NCBI GenBank assembly: GCA_020724905.1
Contig: DYGB01000002.1
Span: 29,425-93,424 of the forward strand
Origin: Candidatus Paceibacter sp.
Lineage (GTDB): Bacteria; Patescibacteriota; Minisyncoccia; UBA6257; JAGOQP01
Direction: 5' to 3'
Length of the DNA: 64,000 nucleotides
In this document: positions 11,491-56,475 of the stretch, piece after piece
Layout: each line of letters opens with the position of its first letter
Position numbering within the stretch: the stretch's first letter is position 1
Notes under the pieces: model-generated
What the model was told of the DNA's origin: nothing
The model's input: only the letters and a program-made list of their open reading frames with translations
The model's database searches: none
Position numbers and translations under genes: made by a program

Positions 11491-14091
11491 ATGCATATGC
11501 ATACTAATCCGTGGACGCTTGATCAGGGACATATTTTTTCTCACTACAAGACAGGAGAAAAAGGGCTTCTAGAATCTCAGGTTGATGAGCGACGAAGCAC
11601 GTATGGAAAGAATGTTATCAAGACAAAACGTCAACGAGGACCACTACAGATATTTCTCTCTCAGTTTAAAAGTCCTCTTATCTTTATTCTTATTATTGCT
11701 GGGATTGTAACACTTTTTTTAAGGGAGTGGATCGATGCGTGTGTTATCTTTCTTGCCATCTTTGTGAATGCAGCACTTGGATTTTATCAAGAGTCACGTG
11801 CAGAAAAATCACTTGAACTTCTTAAATCATATGTGAATGACAGGGCTCGTGTTATTCGAGATGGTGTTGAGATAGAGATTGATGCACGAGAATTAGTTGT
11901 TGGGGATCTTTTACATCTTTCTTACGGGTCTCGTGTTCCTGCTGATGCTCGCATTCTTTCATGTAAAGATTTTTCTGTTGATGAGTCTATCCTTACAGGA
12001 GAATCTCTTACAATTACCAAACAAAGTACTTCACTTCCTGCTGCCACTCCCCTTCCTGAACGAACGAATATGGTGTTCAGTGGCACATTAATTACTGAAG
12101 GATATGCAACAGCTATTGTTACTGCGGTAGGAGAACATACAGAATTTGGATCACTTGCTTCATTGGTATCAGAGACAGAGCGAGCCCAAACACCCCTGCA
12201 AAAGTCTGTTGGTCGTCTTGCCCGTTTTATCGCTATCTTTTTTATACTTTTTGTTATTGTTATTTTTGCTCTTGGAGTATGGAGGGGTGAGTCTATTGTT
12301 GATATGTTTGTTCTTTCTGCTGCTGTTGCGGTTGGTGCTATCCCTGAAGCACTTCCTATTGCACTTACTGTTGTGTTAACTATCGGTGTTGAGCGCATTG
12401 CTCGTCGGAAAGGTATTATGAGAAATCTTTCTGCTGCTGAAACGTTAGGGTCTACCACACTTATTATGACTGACAAGACAGGAACCCTTACCGAAGGAAA
12501 TCTTCAGTTCTTGGCGTCTCGTTCCTATGCTAACGCGTATTCTGATGTCCAGATGCTTCGGTTAGCTTCATATAATACTGATGTATTTGTTGAACACAGG
12601 AATCGTCCTCTTTTAGAATGGAATGTAACGGGGAAACCTTTAGAAGTAGGAGTTATTCGTGCCCTTATCAAACAGAATGATCATACGTTTCTTGGGGAGT
12701 ATGTTTCTTCTGATGCATTTCGTGTCATTCTCCCATTTAACTCAACAAACAAGTTTTCTGTTTCAGTGTATGAGGCAACTTCTCAGAAGTGGATTGAGGG
12801 GATCGATTCTTCTCTTGTGTTTGTGGGAGCTCCTGATATTCTTTTGGGAAAATCATCACTACAAGGTAAAGAAAAAGCATTAATTGAGAAAGAAATCGAA
12901 GCGTTGAGTAGTGAAGGGAAACGTATCTTAGGGGTCGGAATACATACGCTCCCCTCCTCTCTTGATCCTACAAAAGTACGTGATATAGAGGGTATTACAT
13001 TTGTGGGGTTATTGTTGTTTCATGATCCGGTTAGAGAAAGTGTTCCCGCTTCTATTGCTGATATGGAGAAACACTATGGGATTCGTGTTGTTATGGCAAC
13101 AGGAGATCTTCCAGGGACAGCGCTTGCTGTTGCGCATCAGTTAGGATGGGATGTTGATGCTTCTTCTGTGATGACAGGAAAAGAAGTTACCCTTCTTTCT
13201 GATGAGGAATTATTAATGAGACTTCCCTCTATACGTGTGTTTGCTCGCGTTACTCCTCAGGATAAGTTGCGCATTGGGCTTTTATACAAACAACAAGGAG
13301 AAATTGTTGGTATGACGGGAGATGGGGTGAATGATGCTCCATCTCTTAAGGCTGTTGATATTGGTATTGCGGTAGGGTCAGGAAGTGATGTAAGTAAAGA
13401 TGTTGCTGATTTAGTGTTACTTGATGATAATTTTACTACCATTGTGTCTGCTATTGAGGAAGGAAAACGTGTTCTTGCCAACATGAAAAAATCTTTTGTC
13501 TATCTCATGTCTAATTCTCTTGATGAGGTAGCCCTTATTGGACTAAGCTTATTTGCAGGACTTCCTCTCCCCCTTAGTGCGCTTCAGATTATTTGGGTTA
13601 ATTTCTTTACTGGAAGTATTCCCTCTCTTTCATTTGCCTTTGATTCAATCATTGATACACAAAAGAACCCTAAAAAAACACAAGGAAATATTCTTGATGG
13701 TGAGGTGAGGTTTTTAGTGTTAGGGATTGGTGTACTTACCTCACTTCTTCTTTTTGCTATCTATTGGGTACTTCTTGATCATGGATATGATGAAACCATT
13801 GTTCGATCATTTATTTTTACTTGTTTCTCTTCGTATATTTTGTTTGGAGCTTTTTCATTTAGGAGTCTCAAAAAACCTCTTTTCTCGTACAATATCTTTT
13901 CGAATACATTACTTAACATAGGAGTGGGAATTGGTATTCTTCTTATTATTGGCTCACTCTACGTTCCTTTTCTCGCATCTCTTTTTGGTGTGGTTCCCCT
14001 TTCTCTTCCATGGATTGGTGGAGTGATACTGTGGGGTATTGTTTCAGTCTTTCTTATCGAAAGTGCCAAGTGGATGTATCGAAATCGATAG
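11491..14091 (+). CDS. cation-translocating P-type ATPase (P2-type, Ca2+/Mg2+-like)
   Basis: DKTGTLT phosphorylation motif, TGES actuator motif, GDGVNDAPSLK hinge; 10 TM topology. Confidence 0.85.
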   Translation: MHMHTNPWTLDQGHIFSHYKTGEKGLLESQVDERRSTYGKNVIKTKRQRGPLQIFLSQFKSPLIFILIIAGIVTLFLREWIDACVIFLAIFVNAALGFYQESRAEKSLELLKSYVNDRARVIRDGVEIEIDARELVVGDLLHLSYGSRVPADARILSCKDFSVDESILTGESLTITKQSTSLPAATPLPERTNMVFSGTLITEGYATAIVTAVGEHTEFGSLASLVSETERAQTPLQKSVGRLARFIAIFFILFVIVIFALGVWRGESIVDMFVLSAAVAVGAIPEALPIALTVVLTIGVERIARRKGIMRNLSAAETLGSTTLIMTDKTGTLTEGNLQFLASRSYANAYSDVQMLRLASYNTDVFVEHRNRPLLEWNVTGKPLEVGVIRALIKQNDHTFLGEYVSSDAFRVILPFNSTNKFSVSVYEATSQKWIEGIDSSLVFVGAPDILLGKSSLQGKEKALIEKEIEALSSEGKRILGVGIHTLPSSLDPTKVRDIEGITFVGLLLFHDPVRESVPASIADMEKHYGIRVVMATGDLPGTALAVAHQLGWDVDASSVMTGKEVTLLSDEELLMRLPSIRVFARVTPQDKLRIGLLYKQQGEIVGMTGDGVNDAPSLKAVDIGIAVGSGSDVSKDVADLVLLDDNFTTIVSAIEEGKRVLANMKKSFVYLMSNSLDEVALIGLSLFAGLPLPLSALQIIWVNFFTGSIPSLSFAFDSIIDTQKNPKKTQGNILDGEVRFLVLGIGVLTSLLLFAIYWVLLDHGYDETIVRSFIFTCFSSYILFGAFSFRSLKKPLFSYNIFSNTLLNIGVGIGILLIIGSLYVPFLASLFGVVPLSLPWIGGVILWGIVSVFLIESAKWMYRNR

Positions 14092-28898: not shown

Positions 28899-30884
28899 TT
28901 ATAATGTAATACGTTTTAGCGTCATCGCATTTATAACTACGATGACTGTGGAGAGACTCATAAAAAGGGCTCCTATCTCTGGTCGTAGAAAGAATCCCCA
29001 TAGAGCAAACACTCCTGCAGCAGCAGGAATGGCTATGATGTTATATCCAAGGGCCCAGACAAGATTTTGAATCATCTTTACATATACTTTTTTTGATAGC
29101 GATATTAAGCGTGCAACATCTGCGGGATTATTATTCATCAGCACAACATCTCCTGCTTCAACAGCTACATCAGTACCTGCTCCAATTGCAACACCAATAT
29201 CTGCTTGTGTTAGTGCGGGAGCATCATTTACTCCATCTCCTACCATAAGAACTATATTCCCCTGATCTTGGAGTTTTTTAATATGGGTGTATTTATCTTC
29301 TGGAAGTACATTTGCAAAATAAAGATCAATGTCAAGTTGAGTTGATACTTTCTTTGCGACGTGTTCATTATCCCCCGTGAGCATAGCAACATGAATACCC
29401 ATACTGTGAAGATTTTCTATTGCTTGGGAGGATGATTCTTTTATAGCATCAGCAAGTGTAATATATCCCAATAGTTCTTCTTTATCTGCAACAAATACAA
29501 CTGTCTCTGTTATGGTATCTGGAGTACTATGATTGAGTTCGTTCATGAGTTTTTCATTACCGATAGCATAGACTACTCCATCTATTGTTGCCTCTACTCC
29601 CCTTCCTGATTTATTTTTGAAGTGTTCTATCTGAGCGAGTGATATATTCTTTGAACGTGCATGGGAGAGAATAGATTGTCCGATAATGTGAGATGATCCT
29701 TGTTCAAGAGATGCAGCAATACGAAGGATTTCATCTTCATCTTTTGTGCTCATACTTGTAACACCAGTAACTCCAAATACTCCTTCAGTTAAGGTTCCTG
29801 TCTTATCAAATATGACGTAATCAACCTTTTTAATGTGTTCTATTTTAGAAAGATCTTTTATAAAAAATCCATGTTTTACAGCAAGTGATGTTGCAATAGT
29901 GGTAACCGTTGGTATTGCAAGACCAAGTGCATGAGGGCATGCGATAACAAGGACGGTAATTGCTAATGTAATTGCAAATACAAATGTTTCCCCGACAACA
30001 AGTGTCCATATGAGCAATGTTGTAAGGGCGGTAATCCCCGCAATAAAGGTAAGTATAGCCGATGCCTTGTCAGCTATTTTTTGGGAGTGTGGTTTTGTTT
30101 TTCCTGCTTTTTCTATAAGTGTATAGATTTGTCCAACTGTTGAATGTTCTCCAACTCGTGTAAGGGTAATAAGGAGAGAGCCATCTATACAGAGGGAACC
30201 AGCCACAACAGAATCACCCTCTTCCTTTCGTATCGGTTTTGATTCACCACTAATGAGTGATTCATCTATATGTGCAGATCCTTTTGTGATGACTCCATCA
30301 GCAGGTATTTTCTGTCCTGGTTTAACAATAACAGTATCGTGTTCTTTGAGGTCTGATACCTCTACTTCCACCTCTTTTCCCTCTACTTGAGTAAGGGCTT
30401 TTTGAGGGAGGAGTTTTGTAACTTCTTGAAGTGCATTTCCAGCTGCACTACTTGATTTTGCTTCAAGGTAGTGTCCAAACAAAAGTATCCAGATCAAGGT
30501 GGATATCTCAAGATAGAATTCTGCATGGAGTGAAGAGATAAAGGTAGAAGCAACAGAAAATGTATATCCAGCTCCAGTCGCAAGAGAAACGAGTGTCATC
30601 ATTCCGTATTGACGACTTTGTATCTCATGCCATGCATGTTTGAAAAATACTAAAGAGAATCCAAAGATGAGTGTTGCGATACCGAATTGAATCCATGTAT
30701 TTATAGCAATATCAGGAAGAGCAAGTACTTGGGTGACTGTAGGGTGAAGAAGTGTAAGTGGTACCAAGAGAACAGTAACGATCCAGAATCGTTTTAAATA
30801 TGAGGATGCATCCCCATGACCCATTCCGTGTCCATGGGTATTATGTGTATGAGTATGTGTTTGTTTTGTGTGACAACAGTTCAT
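28899..30884 (-). CDS. copB: heavy-metal (copper) translocating P1B-type ATPase, CopB-like with His-rich N-terminus
   Basis: N-terminal HTHTHNTHGHGMGHG, CPH transmembrane metal motif, DKTGTLT, GDGVNDAPAL. Confidence 0.85.
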   Translation of the reverse strand: MNCCHTKQTHTHTHNTHGHGMGHGDASSYLKRFWIVTVLLVPLTLLHPTVTQVLALPDIAINTWIQFGIATLIFGFSLVFFKHAWHEIQSRQYGMMTLVSLATGAGYTFSVASTFISSLHAEFYLEISTLIWILLFGHYLEAKSSSAAGNALQEVTKLLPQKALTQVEGKEVEVEVSDLKEHDTVIVKPGQKIPADGVITKGSAHIDESLISGESKPIRKEEGDSVVAGSLCIDGSLLITLTRVGEHSTVGQIYTLIEKAGKTKPHSQKIADKASAILTFIAGITALTTLLIWTLVVGETFVFAITLAITVLVIACPHALGLAIPTVTTIATSLAVKHGFFIKDLSKIEHIKKVDYVIFDKTGTLTEGVFGVTGVTSMSTKDEDEILRIAASLEQGSSHIIGQSILSHARSKNISLAQIEHFKNKSGRGVEATIDGVVYAIGNEKLMNELNHSTPDTITETVVFVADKEELLGYITLADAIKESSSQAIENLHSMGIHVAMLTGDNEHVAKKVSTQLDIDLYFANVLPEDKYTHIKKLQDQGNIVLMVGDGVNDAPALTQADIGVAIGAGTDVAVEAGDVVLMNNNPADVARLISLSKKVYVKMIQNLVWALGYNIIAIPAAAGVFALWGFFLRPEIGALFMSLSTVIVVINAMTLKRITL

Positions 30885-46190: not shown

Positions 46191-47762
46191 ATGTCTACTC
46201 TTACAAAAAAACAAAAACAAGTCTTTGATTTTATAAAGAGTTATACATCGGAAAATGGTATCTCCCCTACTATAGAAGAAATCCGTAAAGGATTAAAACT
46301 GAAGGCTGTTTCTACAGTACATGAACATATAAAAACTCTTGAGGTAAAAGGGTTTATTTCAAGAGATGATGATTTTTCTAGGAACTTAAGCATAAAAAAG
46401 AACATTATATCTGTGGTACATATTCCTATCCTTGGTCATATAGCTGCGGGCCAACCAATTGAGGCTATAGAAGATTTTCAGGACACCGTATCTATTGTTG
46501 ATTCAAGAATAAAGAGTTCTGAAGGATATTATGCCCTAAGGGTTGTTGGTAATAGTATGATCGATGAAGGAATTTTTGATGGAGATATTGTTGTTATTAA
46601 AAGACAGTCCGTTGCTGACAATGGACAAACTGTTGTTGCGATAATTGATGAAAATGAGGCAACTCTTAAGAAATTATATAAGGAAAGAAGACGTTTTAGA
46701 TTAGAGCCAAGAAATCCTAATATGGAACCTTTATTTAGAACCCATGTGGAGGTTCGAGGAGTTGTAGTAAAAGTTATTAGTAATATTCAAGATGAAGTTG
46801 AGACAATTGCGAAAACAAAACACGGATTTAGAACATTGGATTTGTTTGCAGGTGTTGGGGGTATACGAATAGGTTTTGAAAATGCGGGGTTTAAAACTGT
46901 ATTTGCAAATGATTTTGAAGAAAAATGTGAATATACGTATAACCTAAATTTTAAAAAAACAAAGCTGGTGGTTGAGGACATAAGGAAAATAGGAATTGAT
47001 GATTTGCCAGAATTTGATTTTTTGTTGGGTGGATTCCCCTGCCAAGCCTTTTCCATCGCAGGTTATAGAGAAGGTTTTAATGATAAAAAAGATCGAGGCA
47101 ATTTATTTTTTGATATAGCAAGGATTATTAAAGCCAAAAGACCCGAAGGATTCTTACTTGAGAATGTTAAGAATTTAAAAAGCCATGATCAAGGAAGAAC
47201 TTTTGAGGTTATAGAAAAAACTTTAAAGGATCTCGGATATCATATTCATACAAAGGTTTTAAACACTATGGAGTATGGGAATATTCCTCAAAATAGAGAA
47301 AGAATTTATATAGTTGGATTTAAAAATAAGAACTATTTCGATAGATTTGAATTCCCCAAACCAATCAAATTAACAAAGAAGGTTGTTGACTTATTAGAGA
47401 AGGATGTTCCTGAAAAATATTACTATAATAACAAACCTCTTTACGAAAGAATAAAAAACGATGTGAAAGATAAAAACAAAGTATATCAATGGAGAAGAAA
47501 GTATGTCAGAGAAAATAAAAGTGGCGTATGTCCCACATTAACAGCAAATATGGGAATGGGTGGACACAATGTTCCAATAATTAGGGATAATAAAGGAATA
47601 CGGAAACTTACTCCATTAGAATGCTTTAGGCTCCAAGGCTTTCCTGAGGATTATAAACTTCCTAATGTTGCTGATTCTGTTTTATATAAGCAAGCTGGTA
47701 ATTCCGTTAGTGTTCCGGTTGTAGAAGCTATAGCGAAACAAATAAAAAAAATTATGAAGTAA
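46191..47762 (+). CDS. LexA repressor (wHTH + S24 autopeptidase) fused in-frame to a DNA cytosine-5 methyltransferase
   Basis: Residues 1-200 align along the whole E. coli LexA (LTKKQKQVFDFI; cleavage site IAAGQP; LRVVGNSM Ser; TVVAIIDENEATLKKLYK Lys). Residues ~205-523 carry C5-MTase motifs I DLFAGVGG, IV GFPCQAFS, VI ENV, VIII QNRERIYIVGF, X GNSV. The ORF is continuous. Confidence 0.8.
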   Translation: MSTLTKKQKQVFDFIKSYTSENGISPTIEEIRKGLKLKAVSTVHEHIKTLEVKGFISRDDDFSRNLSIKKNIISVVHIPILGHIAAGQPIEAIEDFQDTVSIVDSRIKSSEGYYALRVVGNSMIDEGIFDGDIVVIKRQSVADNGQTVVAIIDENEATLKKLYKERRRFRLEPRNPNMEPLFRTHVEVRGVVVKVISNIQDEVETIAKTKHGFRTLDLFAGVGGIRIGFENAGFKTVFANDFEEKCEYTYNLNFKKTKLVVEDIRKIGIDDLPEFDFLLGGFPCQAFSIAGYREGFNDKKDRGNLFFDIARIIKAKRPEGFLLENVKNLKSHDQGRTFEVIEKTLKDLGYHIHTKVLNTMEYGNIPQNRERIYIVGFKNKNYFDRFEFPKPIKLTKKVVDLLEKDVPEKYYYNNKPLYERIKNDVKDKNKVYQWRRKYVRENKSGVCPTLTANMGMGGHNVPIIRDNKGIRKLTPLECFRLQGFPEDYKLPNVADSVLYKQAGNSVSVPVVEAIAKQIKKIMK

Positions 47763-47768
47763 GTTTTT

Positions 47769-48818
47769 CTATTTTTCTGTTTTATAGAATTTATCAAACT
47801 CTTTGATCATTTTATTCGTAGAATCTTTAGCAAATATCTCAAAAGAGTTCTTTATCGCTAGATTCTCATTCCAACTTGAGCTTCTTTTAAATTCTGAAAG
47901 CTCTACTCTTACATAACCTGGGGACACCTTCTTTCCGTTAATAGAAATAGACCTTGGGGTTTTTAAATAAAAAGACCCTTTGTTTTGTTTAATGATTGTA
48001 ACTTCTTTTAAATTACCTTCAATAGCAATTGGTAAAAATTTAGAGTCACGAAAATTATAAGTGAATTTCTTGTTCTCCACTCTTATAGGTTTGCTTTTCC
48101 CTGCCCTTACTACTTTATTTACATTTGAGACACTTTTTACATACCATGGGCTAACCTTTGGCTTACAGGATATAGTATGTTCCAAAATTTGGTTTTTAGT
48201 GTATGTACCTATTAATCTGAAACTTCCTATGGTTTTTGCTGGATGGGGTTCTTCTGGATTTATAATGTTTGAATTCTTATCTGATTTTATAAAGATGGGG
48301 TTAATCTTTAGTAAGTCTAAATTTTTTGGATTAAAAACTTCTTTATCAAAAATAGTAGTTAAATAATCTGGGGATAGATCAGATTCAACGAAAACATAGA
48401 AATCATCAATCATTTGTGGTTGCCTGACTCCCATTAAGTATTGTCCTTTTCTAAATACTTTAACTTCTACTCGAGGACGTTTTTTTATAGTTTCCCATTT
48501 CCCATCGTTGTATTGAACAAAAGGGATTATTCTTCTCTTATCCTTTATCCCAATAACATCTGGCGCATTTTTTTCTGATGAATTGTTGTACAAGAAATAA
48601 TCAGGAATAACACTATATGGTTTATCTTTAAAAAGAACGTCAAAAACGACAGTTTCAGCAAGCTTATTAAGCCACCGTTCGATAAATCCTCCGATTAAAT
48701 CTCTTTTAGAGGAAGTCCCTTGGAGATGAAGTGAATCGGAGTTATATTTCATTAATATGAAATATATTGTTCTAATCAGTTCTTCTTTTGTTACTTCTAT
48801 TTTGGGATATTTACTCAT
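47769..48818 (-). CDS. putative Type II restriction endonuclease (PD-(D/E)xK-like), cognate to the adjacent C5-MTase
   Basis: 349-aa ORF convergent and 6 nt from the MTase stop; PDVIGIKDKR...VEVKVFRK resembles a D...ExK core; no other family. Confidence 0.5.
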   Translation of the reverse strand: MSKYPKIEVTKEELIRTIYFILMKYNSDSLHLQGTSSKRDLIGGFIERWLNKLAETVVFDVLFKDKPYSVIPDYFLYNNSSEKNAPDVIGIKDKRRIIPFVQYNDGKWETIKKRPRVEVKVFRKGQYLMGVRQPQMIDDFYVFVESDLSPDYLTTIFDKEVFNPKNLDLLKINPIFIKSDKNSNIINPEEPHPAKTIGSFRLIGTYTKNQILEHTISCKPKVSPWYVKSVSNVNKVVRAGKSKPIRVENKKFTYNFRDSKFLPIAIEGNLKEVTIIKQNKGSFYLKTPRSISINGKKVSPGYVRVELSEFKRSSSWNENLAIKNSFEIFAKDSTNKMIKEFDKFYKTEK

Positions 48819-49064: not shown

Positions 49065-49529
49065 TTATGTTTCTTCTATGATTTTTTTAACAACTTTTTT
49101 GGATATGTTTAATAAGGGGCTGAGATTCAACCAGTATTTTCCATCTTCGCGTTGAGAAAGTATCTCTAATTCACCAAAACCAATTCTTAGTCCAATCCCA
49201 ATTTCCATGTAACTATTATGAGTAAGTTTGTTCCTATATCCATTTCTTAGTGTTTCGACTTGGTCATTTGAAAGACTCAGATTGTAGTAACTAGGATCAT
49301 TCAAAATTTGGAAATGTGTCTTTGTATCATTCCCACCTCCTTTTATAATACTACCAATATTGTCTACTATTGAAAGAAGAATTAACGCCGATGGATATCC
49401 ATAACATCCAGTATATCCATTCCAGCGAGGATCGGAAGATTTATCAAAATTTATACAATATTCCGCAACTTCAATCAGCTCTTTTAGAGCTTCCTTCTGC
49501 ATCTCTGACTTTGATAAATGAAGTGCCAT
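49065..49529 (-). CDS. hypothetical protein
   Basis: Start placed at Met 49529. The longer track ORF (to 49649) is read-through across the tRNA-Gln gene. Confidence 0.45.
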   Translation of the reverse strand: MALHLSKSEMQKEALKELIEVAEYCINFDKSSDPRWNGYTGCYGYPSALILLSIVDNIGSIIKGGGNDTKTHFQILNDPSYYNLSLSNDQVETLRNGYRNKLTHNSYMEIGIGLRIGFGELEILSQREDGKYWLNLSPLLNISKKVVKKIIEET

Positions 49530-49567
49530 ATTAACGTATCTCGTGTAGGATTGTTCCTTGCACGACT

Positions 49568-49641
49568 TGGCTGCCGGACTAGGATTCGAACCTAGATACC
49601 ATGCTCCAGAGGCATGTGTCCTGCCATTAGACGATCCGGCA
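49568..49641 (-). tRNA. tRNA-Gln (anticodon CUG), CCA encoded
   Basis: Cloverleaf: acceptor UGCCGGA/UCCGGCA with U1:A72 and G73 (GlnRS identity elements), D-stem GUCU/GGAC, anticodon stem CAUGC/GCAUG with loop CUCUGGA, T-arm CUAGG-UUCGAAU-CCUAG. Confidence 0.85.
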
Positions 49642-49694
49642 AAATACAAAGCTTATTGTAATGAAAATACTTCTATTATGCAATTATCTTATAT

Positions 49695-50627
49695 TTAGAG
49701 AATTGAAAATGTGGTGTAGGGAGAAACTATCTTTCCTATACTACATTCACATTTCTTAACCATTGATGAATGAGGGCCTTTTTCTACATTTGGAAGAAAA
49801 TATTGTATCGCTTCTTTTTCTCCCTGTGCACAAATAGAGACACTTCCATCATTGTTATTTCTAACAAATCCTTTGAGGTTATATTGTTGAGCTCTTTTTT
49901 CTATGAAACGTCTCATTCCAACACCTTGTACAATTCCTTCTAGATGAGCTGATAGTTCCAAAGGATCATTAAGAAATTCTTCTAGGGAAAGTGACCTTTC
50001 TATAGTGTAGTCTCCTATAGCTGTTCTTGTAAGAGCAGAGAGATATCCTTTAGATGAAAGTCTTTCTCCTAGATCTCTTGCCAAACTCCTCACATAGAAT
50101 CCTGAAGATACAAAGATATCAAGTATAAGTGTATAGGTCTCGTCTTCATTCTTTTGAAGAGATTGTATGGTATATGAATAAAAAGATACTATACGAGGCT
50201 GAGGTGATACTTCTTTCCCTTCTCGAGCTTTTTTATATGCAGCCACACCTCCCCTCTTTATTGCTGAGTATATAGGAGGTATCTGTTGTGTCTGATCTTT
50301 AAGACGTTCAAGCTCTCTTTGTATATCTTTTTTATCTATAGGAGGCACCTTTGTATCTTTGATAACTGTTCCTGTTATATCGTCAGTATCTGATGAGGCT
50401 CCAATACATATATGAGCTCTGTATGACTTATCTTTTCCTCGTAGGATAGTATCTAGTTGTTTTGTGTATTCTCTCCCTATCCCCACCATCAATACTCCTT
50501 CTGCGAATGGATCAAGTGTTCCTCCATGTCCTATCCTTTCCTTTGTTTTGAGTTCTCTTTGAATACTACGTAAAAACCCAGCAGAGCTAGGGCCTTTGGG
50601 TTTGTTCATGATAAAAAGACCACGCAT
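49695..50627 (-). CDS. truB: tRNA pseudouridine(55) synthase TruB fused to a C-terminal acylphosphatase-like domain
   Basis: TruB catalytic motif GHGGTLDP; the C-terminal 85 aa carry both acylphosphatase signatures (IVQGVGMRRF; GFVRNNNDGSV) in place of the usual PUA domain. Confidence 0.8.
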   Translation of the reverse strand: MRGLFIMNKPKGPSSAGFLRSIQRELKTKERIGHGGTLDPFAEGVLMVGIGREYTKQLDTILRGKDKSYRAHICIGASSDTDDITGTVIKDTKVPPIDKKDIQRELERLKDQTQQIPPIYSAIKRGGVAAYKKAREGKEVSPQPRIVSFYSYTIQSLQKNEDETYTLILDIFVSSGFYVRSLARDLGERLSSKGYLSALTRTAIGDYTIERSLSLEEFLNDPLELSAHLEGIVQGVGMRRFIEKRAQQYNLKGFVRNNNDGSVSICAQGEKEAIQYFLPNVEKGPHSSMVKKCECSIGKIVSPYTTFSIL

Positions 50628-50694
50628 AGTATATATAGTGTATCAGATTTATATCAAAGAATATAAAAACCCCCTCGTCTGAGGGGGTTTTAAA

Positions 50695-51606
50695 CTAGTT
50701 TGCCTTAAGATACTTCCCTATCGCGATAAAACTTGATATGAGCCCCAAGATACTTCCAAAGAGTAACTGATAGATAAGGAGTGTTGGGAGATGATCAGTG
50801 AAATAGACCCAGAGATCTAGTTCTGGAACAAGAACATTGCTGTATGGAGAAATAAGGTAAATAAGAGGAGCAATAATGAGTAAACTGATAACAGCAGCAA
50901 GGATACCATAGATAATTCCTTCAATAAGGAATGGACCCCTAATAAAGAAGTTAGATCCCCCTACAAGTCGCATAATCATGATACTATCCTTACTTGAATA
51001 GATAGCAAGACGAATGGTATTAAAGGTAATTAAAACAGCAATAAGAGCCATAAAGATAGTAAGAGCAAATCCTCCCTGTTCTGCAATATTAAGGATAGTA
51101 TTGAGCCTTTCTATCACGGTAGCATTCTGACCATAGGTAACTCGCTCTGTATACTGTTTAATGGACTCATTCTCAAGATAAGCTGCAATTTGTGCATACT
51201 GCTCTGAGTCTTGTGCCTTAATATTAAGAGATGCAAGAAGAGGGTTTTCGCTTAACTGTTGGAGAGCCTGAGAAATTGTTTCATCATCTCCATGTCGTTC
51301 TTTAAAGATCTCAAGTGCTTGATCTTTTGATATATACTGCGTTGCTTTTACTTCTTCAAGTTCTTGTACTGAAGTTTGAATACGAAGAATTTCATCTTCT
51401 GGGGTATCTGCGGTAAAGAAGATACTAATATCAATTTTATCTTGAATATTTTCAATAATAGTTGTAGTGGTCACATTGAAAATATTAAGTCCCGCAAAGA
51501 CTGAAAGTGCGAGCACCATGACTAAGATAGTTGCCGTTGAAAGCCATACATTTCGTTTGAAATGTTGAAAGGCATATTTGATAAGACGTATACCGGTAGT
51601 AATCAT
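50695..51606 (-). CDS. ftsX: cell-division ABC transporter permease FtsX
   Basis: N-terminal TM, periplasmic domain, C-terminal 3-TM FtsX-like permease region. Confidence 0.8.
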   Translation of the reverse strand: MITTGIRLIKYAFQHFKRNVWLSTATILVMVLALSVFAGLNIFNVTTTTIIENIQDKIDISIFFTADTPEDEILRIQTSVQELEEVKATQYISKDQALEIFKERHGDDETISQALQQLSENPLLASLNIKAQDSEQYAQIAAYLENESIKQYTERVTYGQNATVIERLNTILNIAEQGGFALTIFMALIAVLITFNTIRLAIYSSKDSIMIMRLVGGSNFFIRGPFLIEGIIYGILAAVISLLIIAPLIYLISPYSNVLVPELDLWVYFTDHLPTLLIYQLLFGSILGLISSFIAIGKYLKAN

Positions 51607-51609
51607 AAA

Positions 51610-52302
51610 TTAAGCAAGTATATATTTTCCCTTTTCCTCATCGCGTATAATCTTTCCATCTTCAAGACTAATAACACGACGAGCAATACTATTAATGACA
51701 TCTCTATTATGTGTCGCAAGAATAATTGTTGTCCCCAGTTCGTTAATCTTTAATAACAGGTTTAAAATTTCATCAGTATTAACTGGATCAAGGTTTCCTG
51801 TTGGCTCATCAGCGATAATAACATCAGGATTATTAATCATTGCTCGTGCAATAGCGATACGTTGTTTTTCTCCTCCTGATATTTCTCGAGGGAAGTTATC
51901 TGTCTTACTTCCAAGTCCTACAATTTCAAGTGCTTTTGGAACGAGCTCATCAATTTCATTCTGTGGACGTCCTGCTACTTCAAGAGCAAAGGCAACGTTT
52001 TCATATGCTGTCTTTTCAGGAAGTAATTTAAAGTCTTGGAATACCGTTCCAATATGACGCCTCATCTTGTAGAGCTCATTTTCTTTTAAACGATTTACTT
52101 CATAGGAACCAAATACAACACGACCCTTACTTGGTCGTTCTTCTCCAATGAGGAGTTTTATAATCGTTGATTTCCCTGCTCCTGATTTACCCACCAGCGA
52201 GACAAACTCTTTCGGGTTGATCTTGAAACTGACATCCTCAAGAGCAACTGACTTTCGTTTATTTCCTTTATATATCTTGCTGACGTTCTGAAAAATAATC
52301 AT
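51610..52302 (-). CDS. ftsE: cell-division ABC transporter ATPase FtsE
   Basis: Walker A GKSGAGKST, signature LSGGEKQRIAIARA, Walker B IIADEPTGNLD. Confidence 0.9.
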   Translation of the reverse strand: MIIFQNVSKIYKGNKRKSVALEDVSFKINPKEFVSLVGKSGAGKSTIIKLLIGEERPSKGRVVFGSYEVNRLKENELYKMRRHIGTVFQDFKLLPEKTAYENVAFALEVAGRPQNEIDELVPKALEIVGLGSKTDNFPREISGGEKQRIAIARAMINNPDVIIADEPTGNLDPVNTDEILNLLLKINELGTTIILATHNRDVINSIARRVISLEDGKIIRDEEKGKYILA

Positions 52303-52362: not shown

Positions 52363-53445
52363 TTATTTCGTTTCTTGGCGAAAATGAGTAAGCTCGGCTT
52401 CTATAAATCCATCTAAATCCCCTCCTTCAAGTACCGGTTCTACCGTTCGTGTTTCATGATCTGTACGATGATCTTTTATTAATTTATAGGGGTTAAGTAC
52501 GTATGAACGAATCTGGCTCCCCCATTCTGGCTTTGCATTACTCTTCAGGTCATCAAGTTTTTCAACACGTTGTTGTTCCATAAAGTTAACGAGTTTTGCT
52601 TCAAGAACACGGAGTGCTCGTTCCCTATTAGCGCTCTGTGATCGTTCTGCTTGTGAGGCTGCACTGATACCGGTAGGGATATGTACAATACGAACAGCTG
52701 TTTCTACCTTGTTAACGTTTTGTCCTCCAGGACCAGATGATCGAGAAAACTCTACTTTAATATCATCATCTTTAATATCAAGTGTTGGTTCATCAAACTG
52801 AGGTAATACATCAACAAGAGCAAATGATGTATGACGCAATTGTTGTGATGAGAAAGGTGAGACACGAACTAATCGATGCACTCCTGACTCATACTTGAGA
52901 TACCCAAATGCATATGCTCCTGCAACTTCAAAGGTAATATGTTTAAGAGGTTTTCGTCCTGTTTTTGATTGAAACGATTCTTCAGTGATATCAATAACAA
53001 CAACGTTCCATTTTTTTCTTTGTGCCTAGGCACTATACATCTCATAGAGCATATGTACCCAATCAGCTGCATCATCTCCTCCTGCACCTGCAGAGATAGA
53101 AATAATTGCATTCTTTTTATCATAGGGCCCTAAGAACAGTTGTTCCCGTTCTAGTTCTTTTACATCTTTTTTTATCACCGCCAAAAGATCTTCATCATGT
53201 GTTTCTTTTAATTTCTTGAGACCTTCAAGAACTTCAGTATAGGTTGTGATACATCCTTGAAGTTCTCCCAGTTCTTTGAGGGTTGGTTCAACTCCTTCAC
53301 GATCTTTCCAGATATCAGGGTCTTGAAGAAGGAACTCTATCTCTTGTATTCGTTGTTTTTTCTTCTCAATAGCAAGATACTCTTCTAAATATGAGAGTTT
53401 ATCTTCTATATCACCTACGAATTGTTCGTATTCTTTTTCTATCAT
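52363..53445 (-). CDS. prfB: peptide chain release factor 2, single reading frame interrupted by one in-frame TAG at 53026-53028; no canonical +1 frameshift site
   Basis: N-part and C-part (GGQ motif SGPGGQNVNKVETAVR) are in the same frame; translation across the TAG gives ...EMYSA*AQRKKWNVVVIDITE... colinear with E. coli ...ERMYLRWAESRGFKTEIIE... Confidence 0.8.
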
Positions 53446-54195: not shown

Positions 54196-54221
54196 AGGAC
54201 ATCGTGTGATGTCCTTTTTTT
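54196..54221. terminator. bidirectional rho-independent terminator
   Basis: AGGACAT-cgtgtg-ATGTCCT followed by TTTTTTT. Confidence 0.65.
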
Positions 54222-56475
54222 ATGCTCTTAATCGTCTCATAATCCCCTCCTCTATCTCTTTGTATGTCTTGGTATGTTTTTGTAGGGCATAGTCATAGAG
54301 ACGCTGAGCAGCATCTTTATCAGATGGTCTGTAGGGAAGGGTCTCAATACTAAAGGGTTCGGTTACCTTTCCATGATTTAACATCTTTACATAGGCGTGG
54401 AATGCGTTGAGGTTTCCAATATCATGAGCACTAAAGATAGGGTCAAATTCTTTTTCAAGTACTTGAGCATCTTCATTTCCTGTACGAAATACAATCATAG
54501 ATCCAACGTTTCCAAAAACTGCTTTTTTGATATCTTCATCAAGTTGTCCAATAAATTGATGTGCAATGGTAAGGTTTAGTTTGTACTTTCGTGCTTCAGA
54601 GAGAATGGTAGCGATACCATCAGTTGCAACATTATGAAATTCATCGATAAAGAGATTAAAATCAGTTCTTTTTTCAAATGGTATATCTCCTCGTGAAAAT
54701 GCTCCCAAAACCAACTTTCCAATCACTAACATTCCAAGGAGTGCTGCATTCATTTCTCCCAACTTTCCTTTACTGAGATTAACCAGGATAATCTTGTTTT
54801 CATCCATGGCCTTTCTAAATTGAATAGATGAAACTTCTTGTCCGATAATAGGGCGGATAAAGTCATTAGCGATAAATCCATTAAACTTAGAGGTAATATA
54901 GGGGGTAATATTTGCAAGTGACCCTTCTCCTCCAGCTTTTGCAACTTCTTTTGTCCAAAAATCAATAACAACAGGGTTTGTGATTCGTGCTAGTTTTCTC
55001 TGTCTAAATTCAGCATCGGTAAAGACACGAGGAACCTCTATTAATGTTGCTGGTTCATTAACACTATCTTCCAAGAGCAATAGAAGTGCATTGCGCATAT
55101 ACTGTTCAAACATAGGACCCATAGTTTCCTGTGAGAACAGCCTGTTAAAAATGCTTTGAATTTCATTAACGATAAAGGTCTTTTGTTCAGGATGAGCTGG
55201 ATCATATTCAAGCATGTTAATCCCCACAGGATGCTCGAGGTATGAGGGGTCAATGATAATAAGGTCATCTTTTCGTTTTTCTGGAATACATCCTGCAATA
55301 TGTTCAACAAGATCTCCATGAGGATCAATAACACAGACTCCTTTCCCGCGCTCTATATCTTGTGAGGCCAATTGTGTTAAAAGACCTGACTTTCCTGTAC
55401 CTGTTTGCCCGATAATGTAGAGATGACGAGAACGATCCTCATCACTGATATAGATGGGTTTACTTTCTCCACGAGCAGAGCTTTCTCCAATACAGAGTCC
55501 TGAGGTAGGAAGGTTAAGAGGAATGTTACTTTTCTTTGAGGTGACCCATTGTACTGTTGGGCTCAGGGTATCTGCGGTAGGGAAATGAAAGAGGCTTGCA
55601 AGTTCTTCAGTATTAAGAATCATTCCTTTTTTCTCATTGAATTGTCTAAATACAGTGTCATATGCCAATGTTTTAAGAGATCGTTCCTTTTGAATTGAAA
55701 GAAGAGGTCCTTCTGAGGTGGTAAACTGAGAAAATGATTCTGAAATATCATTAAAGATACTTTCTGTTTGAAAATCATTATCAGTTGAAACAATAATACG
55801 AGCATTAACCCAAAGAAGTGGTTTTTTAGCTTTCTTTTGAATATCTTCTTTTGGAGCGATGGTGGTATTTTCCGTTTCTTCTTCATCTGCTTTTTTCTTT
55901 TTCTTTAAGTATGAACGGAGCTGTTTTTTGTATGAGTCAGGAGCTTTTTTAATTAAAAATTGTATGACAACTCCTTCTCCAATGTGTTGAATCTTTGAGA
56001 GTGTGGTAATAATAGGGGCAAAGGTGTCTCGATCCATATCTTTGTAGGTATCGAGAGGAAATGAAAAATGTTTTGTTTGTTGAATATACCCTCCTTTGTG
56101 TACTCCTTCATGTTGGAAAATATTATATTCAGGAACATCTTGAATCTGAATTCCTGGGAAGAGTCCTTCTAGTTCACGTTGGATAAAGGCATGTTTCTCT
56201 TCTGGAAGAGAAAGATAGAAGTTAAGTTCTTCTCCAATATGATGTACTGCAATCTCACATGAAAGGGGTTGGGAGAATTGAGTAAGTGTTGAGAAAAAGT
56301 GTTCTGTTTTTTCAATTGCACTTCTGTCTTCCTGCCTGGGAAGACGAACAAGAAGCAACGTTCGTTTTAATGATTTTTGTATTCTTTGAAGTCGTACTCT
56401 TCGTGCAACAAAAAATATTCCTATACCGATGACGATAAGGAGAATAATTCCTGAACTAATAATAAGTGCGTCCAT
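54220..56475 (-). CDS. TraD/VirD4-like type IV coupling-protein-family ATPase (membrane-anchored)
   Basis: N-terminal TM; Walker A YIIGQTGTGKSG, Walker B LFIDEFHNV; C-terminal ARKYKLNLTIAHQFIGQL...FRTGNEDAQ typical of TrwB/TraD-type DNA-binding ATPases. Confidence 0.55.
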   Translation of the reverse strand: MDALIISSGIILLIVIGIGIFFVARRVRLQRIQKSLKRTLLLVRLPRQEDRSAIEKTEHFFSTLTQFSQPLSCEIAVHHIGEELNFYLSLPEEKHAFIQRELEGLFPGIQIQDVPEYNIFQHEGVHKGGYIQQTKHFSFPLDTYKDMDRDTFAPIITTLSKIQHIGEGVVIQFLIKKAPDSYKKQLRSYLKKKKKADEEETENTTIAPKEDIQKKAKKPLLWVNARIIVSTDNDFQTESIFNDISESFSQFTTSEGPLLSIQKERSLKTLAYDTVFRQFNEKKGMILNTEELASLFHFPTADTLSPTVQWVTSKKSNIPLNLPTSGLCIGESSARGESKPIYISDEDRSRHLYIIGQTGTGKSGLLTQLASQDIERGKGVCVIDPHGDLVEHIAGCIPEKRKDDLIIIDPSYLEHPVGINMLEYDPAHPEQKTFIVNEIQSIFNRLFSQETMGPMFEQYMRNALLLLLEDSVNEPATLIEVPRVFTDAEFRQRKLARITNPVVIDFWTKEVAKAGGEGSLANITPYITSKFNGFIANDFIRPIIGQEVSSIQFRKAMDENKIILVNLSKGKLGEMNAALLGMLVIGKLVLGAFSRGDIPFEKRTDFNLFIDEFHNVATDGIATILSEARKYKLNLTIAHQFIGQLDEDIKKAVFGNVGSMIVFRTGNEDAQVLEKEFDPIFSAHDIGNLNAFHAYVKMLNHGKVTEPFSIETLPYRPSDKDAAQRLYDYALQKHTKTYKEIEEGIMRRLRA

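Follow-up and report, generated by a model that had tools for sequence, protein, structure and literature searches.

A tRNA pseudouridine synthase TruB joined to a C-terminal acylphosphatase domain in Patescibacteria

We analysed a stretch of 64,000 nucleotides from Candidatus Paceibacter sp. (contig DYGB01000002.1; hereafter the window) and found that a single gene, truB-acyP, at 49695..50627 on the minus strand joins a tRNA pseudouridine synthase of the TruB family to an acylphosphatase (AcyP). The host belongs to the Patescibacteria and is a tiny candidate-phyla bacterium. According to the list of open reading frames (ORFs) and the window sequence, the gene is unbroken and runs from an ATG start through 310 codons to a TAA stop, giving a product of 310 aa. 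Its residues 1-221 (49965..50627, minus strand) are assigned by Pfam, TIGR00431 and Foldseek to a TruB catalytic domain of the minimal, PUA-less type, and residues 222-310 (49698..49964, minus strand), which follow without a linker, are assigned to AcyP by PF00708, Foldseek, a profile search and the structural model. Because sequence profile, signature motifs and predicted fold agree, we read the C-terminal domain as an acylphosphatase and not as a PUA domain. That the TruB-AcyP architecture is real, far past chance, is near-certain. In the reading that we favour, and to which we give slightly better than an even chance, the protein would be a bifunctional fusion of a self-sufficient minimal pseudouridine-55 (Psi55) synthase and a probably active AcyP, mechanistically uncoupled from each other.

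Both halves of the protein are recovered by independent family models. Pfam TruB_N (PF01509) covers residues 26-179 (E 3.8e-38, 131.6 bits against a cutoff of 27.3), and Acylphosphatase (PF00708) matches residues 228-309 from position 4 to position 85 of its 85-position profile (E 4.8e-20), scoring 72.1 bits where the gathering score is 22.5. The TruB equivalog of NCBIfam, TIGR00431, reaches 180.9 bits over residues 2-217 (cutoff 151.45). A partial match to TruB_C_2 (residues 180-220, profile 1-41 of 66) stays below its cutoff, with 25.4 bits against 29.3, and the PUA (PF01472), TruB_C and TruB-C_2 (PF09142, PF09157) profiles gave no Pfam match in the 310-aa protein at E<=1. In a sequence search of the PDB, residues 2-227 align with solved TruB chains and residues 225-304 with acylphosphatases (2bjd, E 1.8e-12); the alignments to the solved TruBs, whose chains have 309-327 residues, stop between residues 215 and 232, and beyond this point the chains go on into their C-terminal domains. 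AcyP here makes up the last third of the 310-aa chain and is not a free-standing enzyme of ~90-100 aa, and a six-frame hidden Markov model search found no second AcyP copy in the window.

The sequence motifs point in the same direction. The GHGGTLDP motif lies at residues 33-40 (50508..50531, minus strand) and contains the catalytic Asp39. In an alignment of 19 fusion proteins, G33, H34, G35, G36, L38, D39 and P40 are invariant and position 37 is T or S; the active-site residues D39, Y69 and R180, which we take to be the equivalents of D48, Y76 and R181 of E. coli TruB, do not vary either. In the AcyP domain, signature 1, the phosphate-binding loop LEGIVQGVGMR, occupies residues 229-239 (49911..49943, minus strand; Arg239 codon at 49911-49913), and signature 2, GFVRNNNDGSVSICAQG, occupies residues 253-269 (49821..49871, minus strand; Asn257 codon at 49857-49859). 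When searched as regular expressions, both fit the PROSITE-style acylphosphatase patterns, [LIV]-x-G-x-V-Q-G-V-x-[FM]-R, which contains the catalytic Arg, and G-[FYW]-[AVC]-[KRQAM]-N-x3-G-x-V-x5-G, which contains the catalytic Asn. In acylphosphatases, this Asn places the attacking water. G231, V233, Q234, R239, G253 and N257 are invariant in the 19-sequence alignment, and a relaxed core, G-x-V-[QH]-x-[VI]-x-[FYML]-R followed by the Asn, is retained in 46/48 domain-bearing relatives. A sequence-only reading of the gene had proposed a TruB catalytic domain with GHGGTLDP and a C-terminal acylphosphatase with both signatures, catalytic Arg and Asn included, in place of a PUA or TruB_C domain, and the Pfam, TIGR00431 and motif results bear out each of these points.

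The predicted structure supports the same assignment. An AlphaFold2 (AF2) model of the fusion, whose input alignment consisted of 19 fusion homologues, has a mean predicted local distance difference test score (pLDDT) of 93.2 and a predicted template modelling score (pTM) of 0.87. No low-confidence linker separates the domains: helix 215-220 runs straight into the first AcyP strand, and pLDDT stays at 90-97 in each 10-residue block of residues 221-310. The modelled AcyP has a ferredoxin-like beta-alpha-beta-beta-alpha-beta-beta topology, with strand 223-232, helix 236-248, strands 252-257 and 263-269, helix 271-283 and strands 289-298 and 307-309. In Foldseek searches of the PDB, the TruB part matched 2ab4, 1r3e and 1ze2 (E ~1e-20 to 1e-21, root-mean-square deviation (rmsd) 2.4-2.5 A over 218-223 columns), with template modelling (TM) scores of 0.62-0.63 as normalised to the whole query, and the AcyP part matched 4ojh, 2bjd and 3br8 with target-normalised TM scores of 0.93-0.94 (rmsd 1.1-1.2 A, 88-89 columns). 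From the model, we are confident that AcyP is predicted to pack rigidly on TruB, attached at the point of the chain from which the PUA domain of canonical TruBs extends.

The fusion is not peculiar to one assembly. The identical protein (P0001) is present in NCBI, JGI and Logan assemblies, and a first homologue search returned 19 further clusters with the same TruB_N+PF00708 architecture (36-86% identity, 293-324 aa), the in-frame junction being found independently in NCBI, JGI, ENA and Logan assemblies. A profile of the fusion was then run against 1.84 billion proteins, each representing a cluster at 50% identity; among the best 150 representatives, of 12,003 TruB-like proteins at E<=1e-30, ~30 matched over their full length. 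PF00708 was found by Pfam in 9/10 full-length representatives scanned, the tenth, P0139, having a degenerate domain. The sequence-only reading had suggested a survey of TruB orthologues from related lineages, and there the fusion was indeed met, in the 19 further clusters and in the ~30 full-length representatives; a separate acyP gene joined by a frameshift, which it had also considered, can be set aside since independent assemblies show the unbroken architecture again and again, at 36-86% identity.

Where source names are given, they are Pacebacteria/Paceibacterota, Patescibacteria group, Wolfebacteria and Microgenomates group. At least five metagenome-assembled genomes carry the fusion, namely L013 (Wolfebacteria), L014 (Microgenomates group), L052 (Patescibacteria group) and two labelled only 'bacterium' (L015 and L016). 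One candidate from Oscillospiraceae (L053) was rejected, being a canonical TruB adjoining ribF despite its full-length look. On present evidence, the fusion is confined to Patescibacteria. In the databases, all fusion proteins are annotated as plain 'TruB', and we found no description of a TruB-acylphosphatase fusion in the PMC and bioRxiv literature; the architecture is apparently undescribed there though visible in databases.

Both parts of the gene are under constraint. Compared with an 86%-identical relative, the ratio of nonsynonymous to synonymous substitution (dN/dS) comes to 0.11 over the TruB part and 0.12 over AcyP, and across 36 fusions the divergences of the two parts are correlated (r = 0.59). 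The fusion would have been inherited vertically, with purifying selection on both parts. A profile built from a 25-sequence alignment of the fused domain retrieves stand-alone acylphosphatases of 89-100 aa at E 1e-22 to 1e-30. In the core catalytic columns, the fused domains equal 117 stand-alone enzymes, a comparison that is biased because the stand-alone set was chosen by closeness to the profile; the fused domains have AQG, as opposed to AEG in close stand-alone enzymes. The net charge of the AcyP domain has a median of +3 (pI 9.1) and ranges from -6 to +12 across fusions.

We placed 256 TruB domains in a neighbour-joining tree rooted on canonical 301-aa TruBs, which carries no bootstrap support and whose sampling is biased to similarity with the fusion profile. 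All 44 placed fusions fell within one clade of 57, with 13 unfused short TruBs nested inside; under midpoint rooting of the same tree, the fusions split. The gene order prfB-ftsE-ftsX-truB is common to fused and unfused relatives. Since the fusions share one clade as well as synteny, these sequence comparisons support the view that the fusion would have arisen once, in one Patescibacteria TruB lineage.

The nearest unfused relatives, as well as most Patescibacteria TruBs retrieved, have 206-240 aa and no PUA domain. Therefore, AcyP was probably added to an already PUA-less TruB and not swapped for PUA. The sequence-only reading had AcyP 'replacing' the PUA domain, which is right insofar as AcyP occupies the same chain position as the PUA start and probably wrong insofar as a substitution is meant. 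The likely order of events is that PUA was lost, that AcyP was gained once at the same chain position, and that occasional loss or decay followed.

Several relatives illustrate this last step. P0017 (L010:2910-3602) is 76% identical to the fused P0006 over the TruB part, has a clean end without AcyP, and its next gene begins 48 bp away on the opposite strand; on these grounds, it is a recent, precise loss of AcyP. Within the clade, P0015, P0145 and P0147 have likewise lost the domain. P0012 (L008:5001-5882), the sister of the intact fusion P0132, has a 70-residue tail that is collinear with the AcyP of P0132 in BLASTP, in which 'GAVQNVGFR' has become 'LNEAKNSHF' and the Arg has become Leu; hhalign relates this tail to AcyP with P = 2.4e-4. 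In an AF2 model of P0012, the tail has a beta-alpha-beta-beta-alpha-beta order, but the input alignment of the model contained AcyP rows, and no AcyP was found among the top 50 Foldseek matches of the model, so that the case for a degenerate AcyP in P0012 is carried by BLASTP and hhalign. P0139 (L012:4001-4987) has an AcyP-derived domain without the phosphate loop. In both proteins, the phosphate-binding loop and the catalytic Arg are gone, and we consider them candidate pseudo-enzyme versions or decay intermediates. Because the domain has been cleanly lost or degraded in some lineages, TruB would not need it.

In the favoured, bifunctional reading, the N-terminal 221 residues would be a complete minimal tRNA pseudouridine-55 synthase, able to form Psi55 alone; the AcyP-less relatives within the clade must presumably do so, and the TruB part of the fusion would do likewise. 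The AcyP domain would keep its ancestral chemistry, that is, bind and hydrolyse carboxyl-phosphate anhydrides such as acetyl, carbamoyl and other acyl phosphates. Hence the protein would be a bifunctional gene-fusion product of a reduced genome and not a tRNA-recognition device needed by TruB. The comparisons themselves establish the architecture, the fold, the kept catalytic residues, the selection on both parts, the single clade and the repeated loss; that both activities exist and are uncoupled is what we infer.

Enzyme fusion as such is common for minimal Patescibacteria TruBs. In related uncultured bacteria, other minimal PUA-less TruBs are joined to Sua5/YrdC, which may come before or after TruB (P0064, P0158 and P0166), to NUDIX at the N- or C-terminus, to S4+FtsJ methyltransferase, to a cytidylyltransferase-like domain or to a GT4 glycosyltransferase; the proteins with other enzymes comprise P0064 (L007:3088-4296), P0157, P0158, P0166, P0170, P0178, P0196, P0212 and P0254. 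For several of the partners, a role in RNA binding is not plausible. The count of AcyP fusions is not comparable with that of the other fusions because the search used the profile of the AcyP fusion itself.

On the other hand, a number of observations weigh against an active and uncoupled AcyP. All NCBIfam acylphosphatase equivalogs scored under their cutoffs, the best being PRK14435 with 66.6 bits against 119; given that these models are narrow and have high cutoffs, the miss counts against exact equivalog status and not against the fold or family. A conserved Lys-Pro (K299 in the window protein) is specific to the fusion family, and several core or structural positions are less conserved in the fusions than in stand-alone AcyPs, in the comparison whose bias is noted above. 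The loss of the loop in P0012 and P0139 suggests a non-catalytic role or ongoing decay. Furthermore, the absence of a linker, the pTM of 0.87 and a junction exactly at the PUA start would, as far as the model goes, also fit a structural or RNA-contacting role, and an invariant phosphate loop is just as much to be expected if it clamps RNA by its backbone or 5' phosphate. Taken together, the evidence leans to a preserved phosphate-binding or hydrolase site and does not separate the RNA-binding from the hydrolase options, the two roles that the sequence-only reading had put forward.

The strongest competitor of the bifunctional reading, possible although we find it doubtful, is that AcyP substitutes for PUA: its phosphate loop (Arg239, Asn257) would clamp the backbone or 5' phosphate of the tRNA acceptor stem and position the T-arm, hydrolysis being irrelevant or vestigial. 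This presupposes a TruB otherwise without acceptor-stem contact. E. coli TruB deprived of its PUA domain has ~25-fold slower catalysis (PMC13492117), and an accessory domain could therefore pay its way; its near-normal tRNA binding and the absence of PUA from eukaryotic TruB orthologues (PMC13492117) count for the bifunctional reading. The placement of the domain is suggestive, as it begins at ~222, where the alignments to solved TruBs end before C-terminal domains of ~90 residues, and is joined without a linker, with pLDDT >=90 per 10-residue block across the junction and AcyP and with the pTM given above. Its mildly basic character (median net charge +3, pI 9.1) and the fusion-specific Lys-Pro would also suit contact with RNA, but a range of -6 to +12 makes the charge unremarkable. 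Similarly, P0012 and P0139 hold the domain without its loop, yet elsewhere the full catalytic signature is strictly kept, including Asn257, which goes beyond the needs of backbone binding. Moreover, the 13 in-clade TruBs and most retrieved Patescibacteria TruBs work without any C-terminal domain, the enzymes fused to sister minimal TruBs plainly do not bind RNA, and our literature searches found no RNA-binding acylphosphatase domain. More broadly, it seems to us unlikely either that the AcyP fold has been re-used for tRNA recognition, with the loop gripping the acceptor stem or 5' phosphate in the place of PUA, or that Psi55 formation is coupled to the hydrolysis of a tRNA-linked acyl phosphate or acyl adenylate.

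Coupling taken by itself, in the form of a Rosetta-stone fusion whose AcyP processes a carboxyl-phosphate or acyl-adenylate intermediate of tRNA metabolism, we judge quite improbable. Two versions may be proposed: AcyP might hydrolyse carbamoyl phosphate, as the AcyP of HypF does, and feed a Sua5/YrdC-type (t6A) enzyme, or it might rid the vicinity of tRNA of stray aminoacyl or acyl adenylates. HypF pairs AcyP with a YrdC-like domain, related minimal TruBs are joined to Sua5/YrdC in either order, and the AcyP of the window matches the HypF model TIGR00143 (E 1.8e-10) and HypF structures (E ~4e-8); the TruB-NUDIX fusions, in turn, hint at recurrent phosphoanhydride hydrolases on TruB. Nevertheless, all this support is purely associative. 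Stand-alone AcyP models are far ahead of HypF (66.6 against 39.6 bits), the window protein has neither Zn fingers nor a YrdC domain, and the GT4 and cytidylyltransferase fusions show that partners of TruB need no tRNA logic. Carbamoyl phosphate is also not known to be used by any pathway of t6A synthesis.

Finally, an assembly or frameshift error, or a neutral read-through into an adjacent acyP that is now decaying, is a very remote prospect: damaged relatives do exist (P0175 with a truncated AcyP followed by unrelated sequence, the chimeric-looking P0142, and the degenerate P0012 and P0139), as do clean losses of AcyP, but assemblies and sources independent of one another give the same in-frame junction in ~30 clusters (50% identity), AcyP has a dN/dS of 0.12 with invariant catalytic residues, and no Acylphosphatase match lies downstream of truB in L001, L008, L010 or L012, the four relatives inspected that are unfused or degenerate, nor does a free acyP stand beside truB there as a fusion precursor. 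For the window gene, conservation and selection data rule out such an artefact.

Acylphosphatase, a small and ancient enzyme, is found nearly everywhere, and its physiological substrate is still a matter of debate; TruB, which modifies tRNA and also acts as a tRNA chaperone, is universal. Their fusion, which purifying selection maintains and in which the two active sites have stayed intact, offers a concrete handle on each enzyme. If the domains were coupled, they would reveal a tRNA-linked role for AcyP chemistry or a new solution to tRNA positioning after the loss of PUA; in particular, if AcyP truly clamped the tRNA, one Patescibacteria lineage would have found a new way of positioning tRNA on TruB. 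If they were uncoupled, the fusion would be a clean example of ultra-small genomes bolting housekeeping enzymes (NUDIX, YrdC and others) onto a minimal TruB. The repeated clean losses and the two degenerate versions are natural controls for experiments. There is also a warning for annotation, since proteins labelled only 'TruB' have their second, predicted activity overlooked.

The upstream neighbours of the fusion gene are ftsX (50695-51606, minus strand; Pfam FtsX_ECD/FtsX) and ftsE (51610-52302, minus strand; Pfam ABC_tran). The ftsX-truB spacer (50628-50694, minus strand) measures 67 nt and holds a strong predicted terminator-like GC hairpin with a T-run (50666..50691, minus strand; 11-pair stem) between ftsX and the truB-acyP start; a consensus scan found 5 terminator-like sites against 0.7 expected in shuffles. 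A promoter-like TTGATA-18-TATACT match in the same spacer ends one base before the ATG, so that the mRNA, if the match is real, would be leaderless or start within the ORF. Promoter-like matches were not above chance, with 3 found and 4.9 expected in shuffled sequence, and no Shine-Dalgarno sequence was obvious by eye before truB-acyP.

Further upstream lies a release-factor gene, prfB (52363-53430, minus strand), with PCRF and RF-1 domains and an SPF motif that marks it as release factor 2 (RF2). It is a single frame with one in-frame TAG (codon 53026-53028), one base from TGG, and no +1 frameshift site is evident in it. The TAG (…HMLYEMYSA*AQRKKW) aligns with a position that is a conserved Trp in E. 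coli RF2. The same sequence occurs in an independent JGI contig, which stops at ~53009, 17 nt from this codon, and an assembly join or a strain variant is therefore possible. Among the ORFs of >=200 aa in the window, the stop codons are TAA in 25, TAG in 9 and TGA in 2. Upstream of tRNA-Thr and prfB, a 751-aa HerA/DUF87 and TraG/VirD4-like coupling ATPase is encoded at 54220-56475 (minus strand). A HerA-type ATPase also precedes the prfB-ftsEX-truB cluster in the distant relatives L001, L004 and L012, which indicates a long and conserved synteny block.

On the downstream side, 53 nt from the truB-acyP stop, there is a tRNA-Gln(CTG) gene (49568..49641, minus strand; ARAGORN, and Rfam RF00005 with 59.6 bits). 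Just beyond it lies a 151-aa ORF (49065-49520, minus strand) with no Pfam match, for which the mechanical ORF call, 49065-49649, overruns the tRNA gene. At 46191-47762 (plus strand), a 523-aa protein has LexA DNA-binding and S24 peptidase domains fused to a complete C-5 cytosine DNA methyltransferase; tail to tail with it, a 349-aa ORF (47769-48818, minus strand) has no Pfam match and may be a restriction enzyme. The corresponding site downstream of truB-acyP is occupied by a type I hsdM/S/R system in the 86%-identical relative (L093:3336-8989), and for this reason we regard the region next to tRNA-Gln as a variable defence islet. Elsewhere, the window encodes two P-type (E1-E2) cation ATPases (11491-14091, plus strand, and 28899-30884, minus strand). 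The aspartyl-phosphate intermediates of P-type pumps are classical in-vitro acylphosphatase substrates.

Compared with known systems, the fusion has the same catalytic domain as canonical TruBs (E. coli 1K8W, T. maritima 1R3E/2AB4 and M. tuberculosis 1SGV), at 29-34% identity, including the Asp of GHxGTLDP, the conserved Tyr and Arg, and a thumb-loop region that is of lower confidence in the fusion model. After this domain, canonical TruBs have a PUA-type domain of ~90 residues, whereas the fusion has an acylphosphatase fold. The TruB part is closer to the minimal TruBs of Patescibacteria (P0015 and P0017), which share 46-49% identity with it and the same prfB-ftsE-ftsX-truB synteny, and it also resembles the PUA-less eukaryotic Pus4/TRUB1, of which 8JFX aligns with fusion residues 2-214. 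Both the minimal Patescibacteria and the eukaryotic TruBs end soon after the catalytic domain, while the fusion continues for 89 more residues that make up AcyP.

The fused AcyP, for its part, shares its fold, its length, both signature motifs and the catalytic Arg and Asn with stand-alone acylphosphatases (EC 3.6.1.7; Sulfolobus 2BJD/4OJH, B. subtilis YflL 3BR8/2FHM and Thermus 1ULR), at 31-34% identity. These are free proteins of 89-100 aa, in contrast to the C-terminus of TruB formed by the fused domain. The best-known AcyP domain inside a larger enzyme is that of HypF, which hydrolyses carbamoyl phosphate in [NiFe]-hydrogenase maturation. The likeness to HypF is weak and limited to the AcyP part (TIGR00143, E 1.8e-10 and 39.6 bits against a cutoff of 466.1; 3VTH, E 3.8e-8), and by NCBIfam scores the fused AcyP is closer to stand-alone AcyPs (66.6 against 39.6 bits). 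In HypF, moreover, AcyP is N-terminal and is followed by Zn fingers and by YrdC-like and Kae1-like domains, none of which the fusion has; Pfam finds no zf-HYPF or Sua5/YrdC domain in the fusion protein. The other TruB fusions of Patescibacteria share the same PUA-less core and differ in the enzyme partner that is attached to one of its ends.

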